A stretch of DNA of 42,868 nucleotides. Origin: Planctomycetota bacterium. Lineage in GTDB: Bacteria > Planctomycetota > GCA-002687715 > DRQF01. The stretch spans positions 1-42,868 of the forward strand of contig JALTLO010000138.1 in assembly GCA_027001995.1 (NCBI GenBank), read 5' to 3'. Shown piece by piece: positions 5,263-29,020 of the stretch (the stretch's first letter is position 1; each line of letters begins with the position of its first letter). Below the pieces are notes generated by a model, which did not search any database, was not told the origin of the DNA, and saw only the letters and a list, made by a program, of their open reading frames with translations. The translations under genes were made by a program, and so were the position numbers.

Positions 5263-5293
5263 GGAGGGGGTCTGCCCCAATTCCCTCCTTCTT
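5263..5293 (+). terminator. Probable terminator of the kdsB-pyrG-DUF1844 operon
   Basis: GGAGGGGG / TTCCCTCC stem (two G-U pairs) followed by TTCTT. Confidence 0.4.
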
Positions 5294-5418: not shown

Positions 5419-6636
5419 ATGAATCTGAAGACCGTTGTGGTTCTTTGTGCTCTATTCGTGGCACCTGGAGCCCAGGCATTCCAAGACGAATCCGGCAACC
5501 ACGGAGCCAACGAGAAGTCGATGGCTGCTTTCGTGGCGGTCAGAAAAACATTTGACGATAAGATGGCAGCTTTTGGCAAGAAATATGAAGCAGCCGAGAC
5601 ACGAGAAGCGAAGAATAAGCTCTTTGAAACCGACTACCCCAAGTCGGCAAATTTCGTTCCTCAGATGCTCAAAGTCGCCCAGGATTACCCCAAAACCGAA
5701 GGGGCCTTCGCGGCCCTGAAATGGGCCGTCAACAATGACCGAAGCGGCAAGGCAAACAAGACAGTGCTGCCCATAATCGCCCAGGATTTCCCAAACCATG
5801 ACGGGATTGGCGATATCTGCCTGGCAATCTCCCGCAGCGGATCTTTGGTCACCCGAGATTTCCTAAAACACATCATCAAGGTCAGCGACAACAAGACGAC
5901 AAAAGGGCGAGCTATATTCTCCTTAGCCCAATGGCACGCTTTCGCCGCCAAGACTTTGGAGTACTTCAACGGCAAAGATGAAAAACTCGCTGAAAGAATC
6001 GCAAAGCGAGACGGAGAGAAGACAGTCGCCTTCCTCAAGAAGACCGGTGCAAAGAAACTGAGAATGGAGGCTCTTACCCTCTTCAAACGAGTAGAAGACA
6101 ACTTTGCTGACGTCCCCTATTACCGCAAGAAAACAATCGGGCCATCAGCGCAAAGTGCCGTTTTTGAAATGACCAAACTCAACATTGGTCAAGAAGCCCC
6201 AGATATCACGGCGGAAGACATCGACGGTGTCGAGTTTTCCCTCTCTGACTACCGTGGCAAAGTCGTTGTTCTCGATTTCTGGGGTAACTGGTGAGGACCT
6301 TGCCGGGCTATGTACCCACACGAGCGGTCGCTCGTCAAAAGACTTGCCGGTAAGCCATTTGCTCTCATCGGTGTAAATTCAGATCGAGATCGAGCAAAGC
6401 TGAAAGAGGTTCTTAAGAAGGAAAACATCACTTGGCGTTCTTTCTGGAATGGCGGCGGCACCAGTGGGCCGATCTCCAGTAAGTGGAACGTCAGCGGTTG
6501 GCCCACCATCTACGTCATGGATGCCAAAGGGGTCATCCGCTACAAAGGCGTTCGCGGCAAGGCCATGGATGAAGCAGTTGACACACTCTTGGCTGAGATC
6601 AAGACCGAGTCCAAAGAGTCTTCTGCAGACCAATAG
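5419..6636 (+). CDS. Exported TlpA/redoxin-family thiol-disulfide oxidoreductase, predicted selenoprotein (UxxC, Sec292), 405 aa
   Basis: ORFs 5419..6294 and 6310..6636 are in one frame, separated only by TGA 6292-6294. Read-through gives GKVVVLDFWGNW-U-GPCRAMYPHERSLV...GWPTIYVMDAKGVIR, a complete TlpA fold. The N-terminus has a signal peptide and a helical domain. Confidence 0.88.
6299..6354 (+). promoter_or_regulatory. Candidate bacterial SECIS element
   Basis: Upper stem ACGAGC (6320-6325) / GCTCGT (6330-6335) with a G-initiated loop GGTC 31 nt after the UGA. Lower 8-bp stem CTTGCCGG (6299-6306) / CCGGTAAG (6347-6354). Confidence 0.65.
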
Positions 6637-13784: not shown

Positions 13785-14186
13785 ATGCTGATCCATATCG
13801 ATCCACAATCTGCCGATCCGATTTTTGAGCAAATCGTCTTTCAGGTGAAGGGTGCCATTGCCAAGGGCGAAGGCAAACCTGGGGACAAATTGCCCAGTGT
13901 ACGGGAACTAGCGCGGGAACTTTCTGTCAACCCCAATACCGTCGTGCGTTCCTATCAAACCCTTGAGCAGGAAGGCCTCATCATCAGAAAGCAAGGGTCT
14001 GGATGCTTCATTAAAAAAGGAGCCACAAAGCTCTCCGGTAAAGTCCGCAGAAGTCAGTTAAGAAAACTCATGGAGCGATCGGTTACCGAAGCGTTTCACT
14101 TGGGCTTCTCCAAAGAAGAGATCAAGAAGGCACTCAATGATGGCCTGAAACAAGTCCGCTTTGCGAAAAGAGGAGGAAAGAGATGA
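13785..14186 (+). CDS. GntR-family (YtrA subfamily) transcriptional regulator
   Basis: PIFEQIV...PGDKLPSVRELARELSVNPNTVVRSYQTLE...QGSGCFI; short C-terminus; precedes an ABC ATPase gene. Confidence 0.93.
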   Translation: MLIHIDPQSADPIFEQIVFQVKGAIAKGEGKPGDKLPSVRELARELSVNPNTVVRSYQTLEQEGLIIRKQGSGCFIKKGATKLSGKVRRSQLRKLMERSVTEAFHLGFSKEEIKKALNDGLKQVRFAKRGGKR

Positions 14187-14443
14187 CTGAATCATCTTTG
14201 ATATTCGACCATATCTACCGGCGGTTCAACAAGAAAGAAGTCATCCGAGGCCTCTCGTTTGAAGTGAAGCCGGGTCAGGTTTATGCCCTCTTAGGCCGCA
14301 ATGGTGCTGGCAAAACAACAGCCCTCAGAATCGCCATGGGATTCCTCAAAGCTCACCATGGAACATGCCACATCTTAGGACGAGATAGTCGAACACTGCG
14401 CCCCAAAGATCGGGGGCGATTAGGTTACGTGGCAGAAGGCCAC
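14183..14443 (+). pseudogene. Truncated ABC transporter ATP-binding gene (N-terminal third only)
   Basis: Walker A GRNGAGKTT and LGYVAEGH are present, then similarity stops. No signature motif or Walker B; the frame ends at 14518. Confidence 0.8.
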
Positions 14444-15061
14444 AAGCGGCAGGCTCTACAAGTTGGAGAGCAGAGTCTTCGAACCCATTTCCCTCGATTC
14501 ACCCCTGGTGCTCCATAAACCCAAAATTGACATCCAAGAGATCGACACCCAATCTCACGAAGCATGGCGGCTCAACGTCGTCAAGTATGGCCCCATCGCT
14601 CCGGACTTCCTGGCCCAAGGCATCAATCCCACCACCGAGACCCGTTTCAAATTCTCGCCGGAGACGACAAAGGAACGACTCTACGCAGCGAGCATTTTCG
14701 CGGTGGCACTGACTCGCCCCGTTCTATCTCACATCTCCGGTTTTCTCTCCGAGGACACCGGCTTCACAAATCGATTTCACATGGACTCTCTATTCCACAG
14801 CTCCCTATTCATGGGTGGAAAACGCCTGGGATTCTTGGTTTCCTGTTGTCCCTGAGCCTACTTCTTGCCTGGTATCAGAGAAGACGCCTCTTGCGATTCG
14901 GAGCCTCAGCTTTCACGGCAAACATATGGGCCTTAGCCATCATCTTGACAGGGCCCTTGCTGACCATCTTAGTCGTATTCATCGAAAGACCACGAGCGTA
15001 CGCTCCTGTGACCATCTTAGGGGAAGAGGACGCTCCTCCCTGCCTTTTGAAAAGTGCTTAA
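14442..15061 (+). pseudogene. C-terminal remnant of a membrane (permease-like) protein with a frameshift near 14830
   Basis: The frame of ORF 14463..14855 (...SSLFMGGKRL) continues in the frame ending at 15061 (ILGFLLSLSLLLAWYQRRRL...IWALAIILTGPLLTILVVFIERPR). No proper start. Confidence 0.55.
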
Positions 15062-15159
15062 GCCAGCCTCAAGGGGTCTGGATATTCTCACTATTTCAAC
15101 TCTCGCATCGGTCCAGCAGGTCCTCAAGAGTTGAGGTATCAAGAATAATTGACACCGGA

Positions 15160-16836
15160 TTAGTGACCGATCGCAGTGGACACGCCCGCCCGGATCAATG
15201 CTGCCCATTTCGCCTTCGGATATTTGTGGAGATCAAACATCGTGTTTCCTTTCGACAGTCTAAGGCTCACGCATACCCAATCAGTTGCCAAGATGTCCTT
15301 CAGCAGGAAGAGCGGTCTTCGACGATCACTGCGATCAACGATGGAGATGATGATATCCCTTGATTCTGCGTGAGACTCCAACTTGAATGCACCAGACTTG
15401 ATCCCCACAAGAATCGAGCGCGGAATGGCAAGCAGAGAGAGCTCGAACTCCTGAGCGCCCAAGTAGCGGCCTGCCCGTATCACCGTTGGCTCTTCCTCCT
15501 CATCGTCGTCGTCGCAGTCATCTTCTTCCTCAATGATTTCAGAATCATCATCATGATCGTCAACCTCGAATTCTACCAAGCCCTCTTGAATCTCAGATTC
15601 TTCGTAGTCGTCGCCAACCTCAACTTCTTCGTATTCATCGCCATCAAAATCATCATTAGGATCGTCTTTCTCATCGGGCGCACCCGCGAAGACCCTGAAA
15701 ACCGGCTCAACAGGGTCAAGACCAATCTCAGCAACCTCATCATAGTCGTGAGAAAGCGCGATATGCCCATCCTCACCCTTCCCTGGGAAAATCATCAGCT
15801 CCGTCTCGTAGTCCAGAAATATGTCGTCTACGGCAATAGGATTCTCGCTCTTCTCCTTTACTTGGGCTCGATACGCCTTCAGGTCATCCGAGTCGGGGAG
15901 GTGATAGTCGAAACTATAAATACGTCCGAGTTCCACGATGATAAGAGCCTCGCGACGGTAGTAGATACTTTCTCCTTCATCTATCTCTTTTTCGGCTTTC
16001 ACCCTAGCCGCAGCATTCTTGCTGTAGGAGTTCACGTCAATCATCACATAGGGCCAACAATGACCGCGGCTTTCATCCCATCCCACTTCAATTTCAGCTT
16101 CCATGCTGTCATTACGCCAAGACACACTTCTGTCGGGAGTTTCTTTTTCGATATCCAAGGTGAGCACGACCGGAACTTGAGTCTGCTTCCCTTTGGAGTT
16201 GCTGAACTTCAAGAACAAAGTAGACTTCAAGTTCGCCATTTCAGTCTGTTCGCCGATTTCCAGAATCTGGTCATCAACGACAACTCGATAGAAATAACTG
16301 AATCGGCTGTGACTGGGAGTCTTGGTTGTGACTTCCATGCGACTATAGACAAGAGATTTATTCGGCGGAAACGCGGCTGTGAGGTGAGAACTGTTGTCAC
16401 TGCGCCTCTGGAGAAAATCAAGGCTCAATCCATTATGTAGATAGGCAAAGTCATTGGGACCAGCATAGCGCGTGAACTTGGGCATGGGTAAAGCCTTATC
16501 GGCGGTCCCAGTAAGATCAACGTCCTCGCTCGTCAGCCGACTCCGAATCACAATCGCTTCGAAATCTGGTTCCGCTTGGAAAGTCGATCCATCCCGCAGA
16601 ATCTCGGGCTTCCTAAAGGCTCCTGGCACATTGCCGGCCTCCGCGACATGATCGTTCAGATCAAGCGCATCGAGGGTCATGCCCTCGTCGATCTCCTGAA
16701 GTACGAGGCAGAATGCAACGCAAACAACCAAAGCAATCACGACTGCCCCGAACAAATAATGTCCAGCACGCTGACGCCTATTTCCTACAACACTCAGTTG
16801 GTCAGTGGTCCCCATTTCTTCTCTTCTCCCAAACAC
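15160..16836 (-). CDS. Hypothetical membrane-anchored protein with Asp/Glu-rich tract
   Basis: 558-aa ORF with one N-terminal TM helix and a long acidic segment (DEKDDPNDDFDGDEYEEVE...EEEDDCDDDDEEEE). Exact start uncertain. Confidence 0.7.
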   Translation of the reverse strand: MFGRREEMGTTDQLSVVGNRRQRAGHYLFGAVVIALVVCVAFCLVLQEIDEGMTLDALDLNDHVAEAGNVPGAFRKPEILRDGSTFQAEPDFEAIVIRSRLTSEDVDLTGTADKALPMPKFTRYAGPNDFAYLHNGLSLDFLQRRSDNSSHLTAAFPPNKSLVYSRMEVTTKTPSHSRFSYFYRVVVDDQILEIGEQTEMANLKSTLFLKFSNSKGKQTQVPVVLTLDIEKETPDRSVSWRNDSMEAEIEVGWDESRGHCWPYVMIDVNSYSKNAAARVKAEKEIDEGESIYYRREALIIVELGRIYSFDYHLPDSDDLKAYRAQVKEKSENPIAVDDIFLDYETELMIFPGKGEDGHIALSHDYDEVAEIGLDPVEPVFRVFAGAPDEKDDPNDDFDGDEYEEVEVGDDYEESEIQEGLVEFEVDDHDDDSEIIEEEDDCDDDDEEEEPTVIRAGRYLGAQEFELSLLAIPRSILVGIKSGAFKLESHAESRDIIISIVDRSDRRRPLFLLKDILATDWVCVSLRLSKGNTMFDLHKYPKAKWAALIRAGVSTAIGH

Positions 16837-17057: not shown

Positions 17058-18375
17058 GGATCTTCAGAAGAATTTGTGGGTTGTTTCAGGATCCGGTAGG
17101 TCTCCCATCGCATGATAGAGCGCGATTTCGGTGGCTTTGAAGGTTCTGAAACCATATGCCTTTCTGGTGGTGAGTTTCAGTTTGTTGTCTAGCCCTTCAA
17201 CGACACCGGCAGAAACGGTGCCCTTGGCTCGAAACCAGTTGAGGATCAAGGGCTGATGTCGCCTTACCATCTTGGCGATCTTCTTCATTGGTTCAATGCG
17301 AGATCTCATGACAGTCTCGCACCATTGCTCAAGAAACTTCCTTGCCCATGCAGGACTGCTGTAGTCCCAGAGCCTCTGAAACTCTTTCTTGAGCAGGTAC
17401 GATTGACACTCTTCAAGTTGTATTGAATCAACTGGTTCATCGAGATCGTTTGTTTCTCTGTCAGATTCTCAGGCCGTTTGACGAGCAGCCACCTCTTGCT
17501 CTTAAGGACGGACTCAAAGCCCTTGGCCTTGTCAATCGTCTTGTTGATGTTCGCTACGATGTGGAAGCGCTCAAGGACATGAATGGCTTGCCCAGCACGC
17601 TCGGCAACGACCTTGAGATAGGGTTTCCACATATCGCTGCAAACGTAGACCAGTTCCATAGCTCGGTCACCAAAGGAGTCCAAGAATGACTGAATCGCTT
17701 CTTCTTTGCGGTCCTTTCCCAGCCAGAGGATTCTTCGGCGGCCAATCGAAATGTTGTAAACCACCATCATGTATTTATGGCCGCGATGCCAAAGGACTTC
17801 ATCGATGCCAATGGCTTTGATGTTGCTCAAGTCGCGGTGATCCAAGCCCCAGGCCACTGCATTGTGACAGCCCTAAACACGCTATCCCACGATGTTTTGA
17901 CGGCTTCAGCGGTTTCTTTCCAGCTAGGACGCTTCGCCCCGCCAACCAAAAACCAGGCAAAGGATGTTGTGACCGGACTTTTGCCCTCAGCCCATGGCAT
18001 ACGTTCAGTAAGCAGTCACGCCACAGCATAGACAATTGACACGGCGCATCGTGTAGAGAAAGAAAACGGCGATCCCCCAAAGAGGAACGAATTGAAATCG
18101 CCGAAGCTCCGAAGCGGTGTCGTAGATGCCGCCACGCTTCCCGCATCTTGAGCAAACAGGCCTACTGTTGACACTCGGAGAGATCGGAATCACGGTCGAT
18201 TTAGCGCCGTCTTCGAATTTTGGCTGGTCGTAAACAAATGATCCGTGTCTTTCGACACCAATACCATTCTGGAATAGGATTGCCAACACACAGGGAAAGG
18301 CACCAATTGAGTTGAGGTGAAAGAGTTGGTGAACAAAGACCACAAGAGAGTCATCCACCAAATTCTTGAAGATTT
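17058..18375 (-). mobile_element. Degenerate ISL3-family insertion sequence (transposase pseudogene)
   Basis: Fragments in several frames: CSRCG...FQFVPLWGIAVFFLYTMRRVNC; PWAEGKSPVT..SWKETA; AIGIDE..CSDMWKPY..RFHIV; VEGLDNKLK..RKAYGFRT..THKFF. One end reads GGATCTTCAGAAGAATTTGTGG at 17058, with a degenerate inverted copy at about 18355-18375. Confidence 0.88.
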
Positions 18376-28309: not shown

Positions 28310-29020
28310 ACAGGCGCGGCAGAATGAATGTGGCAAATCCATACAGTCATGGGTCCCAACCCGAGCTCACGATACAAGTCTCACTTTCGAGGCTACGGTT
28401 TAGGATGGGGTCTAAGCGACATGAGAGGAAATTTGGTTGTATCCCACACCGGTGGTCTTCCGGGCATGCTTTCAAAGACCATTCTCATCCCCGACCTGAA
28501 CTTGGGCATTGTTTTGCTGTCGAACACCAGCAACGGCGGTGGCGGTCTTTTCGAATCGGTCACCCGAACCATCGTCGACAGCTATCTTGGGCTGGAAGAC
28601 TTTGGCTGGATCGAGAAATTCGTCGCAGCAACTCAAAGACGAGCAAGCCACGGAGACGCGGTTTCGGCCCGGGTTTGGCAAACCGTGGAAAAGGCAAAGA
28701 ATACAGCAATCGTTCATGAGAATTTCGTTGGTATCTACGCCGACAAATGGTTCGGCAAGATCGAAGTTTTCATGAAAGGAAAACGCATGTGGATCAAGTG
28801 TCTTCGCTCACCCAAGCTAAATGGCCCCATGCAATTTTACAAAGCCAACACATTCGCGGTGAAATGGGAGTATCAAGATATGGTTGCGGACGCCTTTGTC
28901 AACTTCATGCTAGACGAAGAAGGTAAAGCTCAAGGGTTTAAGATGAAAGGAATCTCACCCAACATCGATTTCAGCTTCGACTTCCATGATCTCGACCTCA
29001 AACGAATCCAATCCAAATAG
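28310..29020 (+). pseudogene. C-terminal fragment of a beta-lactamase-family serine hydrolase (with DUF3471-like domain)
   Basis: YGLGW, HTGGLPG, LGIVLLSN and GIYADKWFG..IEV motifs are present, but the SxxK and YxN regions are missing. An in-frame TGA lies directly before ATG 28328. Confidence 0.75.

Follow-up and report, generated by a model that had tools for sequence, protein, structure and literature searches.

A predicted exported TlpA/ResA-like selenoprotein of Planctomycetota that is held in databases as two separate proteins

The closest described relatives of the gene analyzed here are thioredoxin-like selenoproteins with a UxxC motif. The GOS marine selenoproteome of 2008 includes UxxC selenoproteins assigned to pfam00578 under the name "Prx-like 1" (PMC2398784), which share both the PF00578 domain and the UxxC motif with our protein and which appear as "Prx-like thiol:disulfide oxidoreductase" in Table 1 of PMC13188914, where this family and the isomerase-like and Redoxin UxxC families are given as predicted; the thiol-disulfide isomerase-like (cd02966) and Redoxin-family (PF08534) selenoproteins likewise have the same TlpA-like fold together with UxxC (PMC1088965; PMC13188914). 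By eye, two reads with the motif of our subfamily (WUGPC or WUPPC, then HERSLV) can be recognized in Dataset S1 of PMC2398784, after the Prx-like 1 header and before that of Prx-like 2. The Prx-like 1 bin differs from this subfamily in that it mixes unrelated redoxins and consists of fragmentary reads, and in the available parts of the literature we found no description for Prx-like 1 of a signal peptide, a 230-residue helical arm, a frozen SECIS element, or a planctomycete-wide spread. In the planctomycete P1, two "thiol-disulfide isomerase-like thioredoxin" candidates are split in IMG and have Singulisphaera Cys homologs as their closest relatives (PMC4807772, S9 Table); these were scored without a SECIS element, whereas the element here is canonical, a comparison that was made between table entries rather than sequences.

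Among other redoxins of this type, Bradyrhizobium TlpA, Bacillus ResA, CcmG/DsbE, and the Caulobacter ScsB-TlpA-PprX system (PMC3322552) share the fold, with Z scores of 15-19.8. The position of CxxC, the cis-Pro loop, and the extracytoplasmic location (predicted in our case) are common to TlpA, ResA, CcmG, and the protein studied here, but the latter has Sec for the first Cys, Met for the Glu that follows CxxC, and a large helical N-terminal domain. The original prediction for this locus held that the architecture is poorly characterized. That view stands insofar as our literature search returned no biochemical characterization of the subfamily, but not as regards its recognition as a selenoprotein; members were already predicted as such in 2008 (PMC2398784, Dataset S1), and the finding is in this sense real yet fairly ordinary. 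We found no paper joining "selenoproteome" with "Planctomycetota," and the accessible text of BSepDB mentions neither planctomycetes nor TlpA.

Within the window (the whole 42,868-nucleotide stretch of DNA that was analyzed), positions 5419-6636 of the forward strand constitute one frame in which TGA 6292-6294 is the sole internal stop and TAG the end codon; read-through yields 405 aa, in agreement with the earlier description of two ORFs in one frame split by this TGA only. The TGA stands in the context DFWGNW-U-GPC, and GWPT occupies residues 360-363. The features of the locus are as follows.

5263..5288, + strand: terminator-like hairpin separating kdsB-pyrG-DUF1844, which lie upstream, from the selenoprotein gene (consensus match only)
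5419..6636, + strand: single gene of 405 aa, with UGA as Sec (frame analysis)
5419-6294 (291 aa) and 6310-6636 (108 aa), + strand: gene-caller halves, held as separate database proteins P0002 and P0123
5419..5478, + strand: predicted cleavable signal peptide, residues 1-20 (hydrophobicity heuristic)
5497..6177, + strand: all-helical, repeat-like N-terminal domain, residues 27-253, a TPR/ARM-like solenoid (model pLDDT 96.9 when modeled alone)
6178..6606, + strand: TlpA/ResA-type thioredoxin domain, residues 254-396 (PF00578, PF08534, fold match)
6292..6294, + strand: in-frame TGA, predicted Sec292, the attacking residue of U-G-P-C (homolog alignment)
6301..6303, + strand: resolving Cys295 (Cys in 86/86 rows of alignment A1 that reach the column)
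6310..6312, + strand: in-frame ATG, Met298, a false start for gene callers (starts of C-terminal pieces in databases)
6320..6335, + strand: SECIS-type hairpin with a 6-bp stem and a GGUC loop at 6326-6329, overlapping the H-E-R-S-L-V codons (folding and codon conservation)
6502..6504, + strand: Pro362 of GWPT, the expected cis-Pro of the thioredoxin fold (Pro in 86/86 rows of A1 that reach the column)

Terminator-like hairpins numbered 5, compared with 2.6 expected from shuffles.

The Sec292 column holds Cys in 84 of the 91 rows of alignment A1, in which the query, with C in place of U, forms row 1 and 5 rows stop short of this column, as expected from the claim that the TGA falls at the attacking Cys of a redoxin motif. 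An in-frame UGA aligned to a conserved Cys, with similarity on both sides, is the pattern by which bacterial selenoproteins are recognized, and it is seen here. All six tblastn matches within the source genome have a stop at this column, and six-frame counts of that genome gave seven occurrences of WUGPC and none of W(TAA/TAG)GPC, which places UGA at Sec292 beyond chance. Both gene-caller halves exist as separate database entries, in keeping with the earlier remark that standard pipelines split such genes, and all 120 of the best listed matches to the C-terminal piece begin no more than 2 residues from Met298 and lack CxxC. The in-frame ATG 15 nt past the stop, the conservation of Met at that point (78/86), and the thousands of such pieces held in databases (7652 matches among 8000 candidates) could also be taken to mean that translation truly stops at the UGA and starts again at ATG 6310, so that two complementary peptides are made, or that some other recoding assigns Cys or Trp to the UGA. 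We consider this very improbable: the G-P-C that lies between the UGA and the ATG is conserved (86/86 for both Pro and Cys), neither TAA nor TAG ever occupies this codon in the WxGPC motifs of the genome, TGA is an ordinary stop elsewhere (it closes 1033 of the 2423 genome ORFs with at least 300 codons), selA and selD have tRNA-Sec next to them, and the TGA forms track selA.

The full Sec machinery, for which a search had been proposed, is present in the source genome; selA (510.9 bits), selD (357.2 bits), and tRNA-Sec (68.2 bits) lie together on contig C148 and selB (334.3 bits) on contig C17, all above curated cutoffs, and selD itself holds one TGA. A search of 41 genomes recovered a match in 33, among them every one of the other 22 from the order, with the in-frame TGA in 54 of the 54 best matches. 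Across 401 genomes of the phylum, a pattern that admitted TGA, TGC, and TGT equally, and whose downstream part was modeled on the subfamily and may favor Sec forms, gave 154 matches in 87 genomes; 148 of the 150 listed carry TGA and 2 carry TGC. The expectation that homologs would have TGA at this codon was thus borne out. The idea that a Cys gene has acquired a nonsense mutation or was misread in sequencing has nothing in its favor beyond the stop itself and is refuted by these counts, by the occurrence of the TGA form in 81 genomes, and by uniform public contigs; as a check on the raw letters, contigs (not reads) of 4 runs from 2 studies, one of them possibly the source run, showed no variant letter and neither TGC nor TGT at 6292-6294. 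The runs listed as carrying the sequence included none of RNA. In runs X1 and X2 the contigs break at the SECIS block (window 6315-6339), probably because paralogs and relatives are identical letter for letter there.

A selA match was found in all 87 motif-bearing genomes versus 298 of the 401 overall (kin among these are not independent), and the motif was absent from all 103 phylum genomes without a selA match. The overall share, from genomes sampled evenly across the phylum, is high for a group that is little discussed in the selenoproteome papers as far as their accessible text goes. Named homologs are mostly Planctomycetota and no ftsZ was detected in the 92%-complete source genome, both of which fit the probable planctomycete origin proposed originally.

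The GGUC loop of the hairpin lies 31 nt after the UGA, and a 26-nt piece folds with -8.5 kcal/mol and a z score of -3.2 (1 of 200 shuffles folds as well). The bSECIS model calls for a loop of 3-9 nt with G first or second, a stem of 4-16 bp, a distance of 16-37 nt from the UGA, and an MFE of at most -7.5 (PMC13188914), and with its 4-nt loop, 6 bp, 31 nt, and -8.5 kcal/mol the hairpin falls within the model on all four points. Its codons are fixed in the 86 Sec genes we compared (drawn from 60 diversity-picked regions out of the 150 phylum matches, 20 loci of the 41-genome search, and two paralogs), with Arg as CGG in 67/69, Ser as TCG in 67/67, and Leu as CTC in 78/80, while in the same genes the neighboring codons are free, a nearby Arg using six codons, a nearby Leu four, and Pro also varying. 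All 62 Sec genes coding HERSLV share an identical 14 nt, paired cells amount to 90% at the hairpin position versus 16-41% when it is slid, a Leu-to-Phe change within the hairpin of locus L072 keeps the pairing, and FdhA of the source genome has the same GGUC loop. Given the machinery and the hairpin observed, it is very likely that the internal UGA is decoded as selenocysteine.

Covariation was not above that of shuffles (112 of 500 reached the score, with two-sided changes in only 2 cells), so the support for the hairpin is conservation rather than covariation. It is the short hairpin alone that stands out; windows of 59 and 79 nt after the UGA have folds no more stable than those of shuffled sequences, and an Rfam scan of the window gave no match at the gathering score. 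The GGUC hairpin is missing at this position in 19 of the 86 Sec genes, mostly in a subclade with H-E-K rather than H-E-R-S. Loci L023-L027, L037, L039, L053, L062, L065, L067, L069-L071, L073, and L074 of this subclade keep the UGA and have H-E-K-x-x-V with a weak or purine-loop hairpin; these genes are candidates for a noncanonical or displaced SECIS element.

Reversion from Sec to Cys is rare in bacteria (PMC13188914). Nine Cys genes with the HER(S/T)LV pattern were found in the genome collection; the three with HERSLV keep the exact hairpin and the six with HERTLV do not. In the hairpin-keeping Cys-codon homologs (L029, L033, and L036) this pattern suggests Sec ancestry and possible Sec-to-Cys reversion; selA was found in the genomes of the latter two and not in that of L029. 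Restriction of the Cys forms to genomes without Sec machinery is ruled out by the presence of selA in 7 of 9. Trees of Cys and Sec forms need 14 changes (201 rows, FastTree) or 8 (60 rows chosen by hand), but the AU test does not reject a single Cys clade (p 0.324) and the outgroups are long branches, so that repeated reversion is not established. Cys forms look typical in databases because the Sec forms are split there, although the Sec form is by far the more frequent of the two in genomes. Some members (L013, L014, and L022; P0023, P0025, P0031, P0036, and P0057) are tandem forms in which two redoxin domains go together with two in-frame UGAs, and for these the databases carry the middle piece as a protein running from after one UGA to the next.

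The predicted protein begins with a basic N terminus, a hydrophobic core, and AQA within residues 1-20, a signal-peptide-like start that the hydrophobicity heuristic found in the query and in 64 of the 72 Sec-form homologs scored. A model of the read-through product with Cys for Sec forms one chain (mean pLDDT 94, pTM 0.88) that is helical over residues 27-253 and adopts a thioredoxin fold over about 254-396; the signal peptide, the helical N-terminal domain of ~230 aa, and the thioredoxin fold with GWPT that had been expected on read-through were all recovered, the first of them as a prediction. The thioredoxin domain matches PF00578 at 74 bits (cutoff 26) and PF08534 at 64.5 bits, and residues 254-396 superpose on 3gl3 (Z 19.8, rmsd 1.7 A over 136 residues) and on ResA 2f9s (Z 19.5, rmsd 1.8 A over 135). 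The fold is of the TlpA type in both its CxxC position and its cis-Pro loop and matches DsbE, ResA, and TlpA; the Pro362 segment aligns with GMPT of TlpA 1jfu, and its cis geometry is inferred. None of the dedicated NCBIfam models reaches its cutoff (ResA 72/170, TlpA 63.5/230, and DsbE 47.2/123 bits), and NF041054, a ResA-like WAxxUGC selenoprotein model, scores 35.2 bits against 300, the motif here being UGPC and not UGC. In ResA, the Glu three residues after CxxC has a role in substrate control. This Glu of ResA and TlpA is Met in the query and in 78 of the 86 Sec forms, and substrate control therefore probably differs from that of ResA.

The N-terminal domain belongs to no Pfam family, has no Foldseek match at an E value of 0.001 or better, falls in unnamed ESM Atlas clusters without a shared Pfam family, and resembles only generic helical repeats, the best match (Z 10.6) being to a designed repeat. 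We predict that it acts as a binding arm for a substrate or partner. An arm of 230 residues could also serve as a chaperone, in which case the same selenoprotein might be an oxidase or isomerase that folds Cys-rich envelope proteins rather than a DsbD-fed reductase. The top natural fold matches of the domain include the periplasmic TPR-type YfgM (8zht_B; Z 8.9, rmsd 4.2 A, 156 aligned), and the three paralogs per genome and the tandem two-domain forms would suit such a role, but Z values below 13 are not diagnostic for helical repeats, and the G-P dipeptide and the TlpA/ResA fold are typical of reducing thioredoxins. We consider this alternative unlikely. Less likely still is that the protein scavenges peroxides or sulfoxides in the envelope, as the name "Prx-like" implies; its top Pfam match is AhpC/TSA, and the 5 PF00115 matches in the genome (haem-copper oxidase-type subunits) make oxidative stress plausible, but the motif is UxxC with no PxxxTxxU peroxiredoxin motif, the genome has a separate TxxU peroxiredoxin (L105), and the Prx-like proteins are themselves defined by a thioredoxin-like UxxC (PMC1088965).

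The reading we favor, with a probability of roughly 60%, is that of an exported Sec-containing TlpA/ResA-like periplasmic disulfide reductase that is recharged by DsbD and whose helical arm likely binds substrate. SelB carrying Sec-tRNA would recognize the GGUC hairpin that lies 31 nt past the UGA and insert Sec at codon 292, after which the predicted signal peptide would direct export by the Sec pathway. By the chemistry of thioredoxins, U292 as a selenolate would be the nucleophile toward a substrate disulfide, with C295 resolving the intermediate and leaving a selenenylsulfide that DsbD would reduce again with electrons from cytoplasmic thioredoxin. Electron transfer from ScsB/DsbD to TlpA has precedent (PMC3322552), and by this analogy DsbD is a reasonably probable partner of the enzyme.

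One full-length DsbD is encoded in the source genome (L097:475-2865, contig C20; PF02683 and PF11412), and its C-terminal thioredoxin domain continues through a TGA as U-P-N-C, with a hairpin of its own, and is conserved in the family. We take cd02953 to be the DsbD-gamma model. The C-terminal part of DsbD has a match in 23 of the 41 genomes, and in 20 of these 23, including all 9 of the family, the match contains an in-frame TGA; in the 10 loci whose motif was inspected, U was present in 8 and Cys in 1 (G009), and 1 was not parsed. Among the papers listed by our search, we found no description of a Sec-containing DsbD paired with Sec-containing TlpA partners in one lineage. The window neighbors of the gene are housekeeping or unrelated genes, none of the 5 tested recurs beside it in 9 longer loci, and no DsbD, ccm, or feoB gene occurs among the neighbors scanned in those 9 loci (39 proteins, 37 of them from 61 listed ORFs); with neighbors unconserved and neither DsbD nor ccm among them, gene order lends the DsbD link no support.

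Elsewhere in the window, region 14183-15363 appears to contain a frameshifted or split gene, as an ABC ATPase match there is confined to profile positions 2-72 of 137 within an ORF of 111 aa, after which come overlapping ORFs; a partial ISL3 transposase (17306-17857; 145/240 positions) and a serine-hydrolase fragment with DUF3471 (28328-29020; PF00144, 49/329 positions) appear truncated.

Genome-wide, some twelve Sec genes have good support and several more have weaker support, most with signal-peptide-like starts by inspection; these counts are lower bounds, as the UGA scans were crude and both missed the focal gene. RGUY-loop hairpins after a stop with coding on both sides were found at 13 of 197 UGA, 1 of 143 TAA, and 2 of 142 TAG. 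The candidates (L099-L118, on contigs C27, C43, C44, C58, C68, C76, C88, C99, C105, C141, C155, C177, and C197) include FdhA, a TxxU peroxiredoxin, a VPGUxxT protein with two UGAs (NF041383, above cutoff), two paralogs of the Sec TlpA-like family along with three other TlpA-like genes (one with two UGAs), a BNR-repeat protein, an FG-GAP protein, and five without a family match (L102, with two UGAs, L103, L108, L110, and L112). L104, L115, and L117 were dropped on inspection as adjacent genes or shadow frames, and L113 contains N and lay outside the family scan. The Sec peroxiredoxin (L105, C105:26700-28900) has no obvious signal peptide and lies just upstream of a Sec TlpA-like paralog on the same strand.

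Retention of selenoproteins by aerobes is described as rare in PMC13188914; Sec use had already been found to be common in aerobes, with selenoprotein-rich genomes mostly anaerobic (PMC5029168). We tentatively suggest that this oxidase-encoding planctomycete lineage may run a selenium-based reducing relay in its envelope, from Sec-DsbD to several exported Sec-TlpAs, as part of a selenoproteome that is mostly exported. The family would be ancestrally Sec containing, its HERSLV fixed phylum-wide by its SECIS element, and the Cys forms that prevail in annotation would have arisen by repeated reversion. More immediately, the analysis corrects a large annotation error, as the family is held mostly as a 290-aa "hypothetical" protein and a 100-aa piece without the active site. 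The SECIS hairpin and the Sec-containing DsbD were both absent from the original prediction; the former offers a clean natural SECIS element for studies of SelB, and the latter, together with the Sec enzyme, raises the question of why lineages with genes for oxygen respiration keep many exported selenoenzymes.
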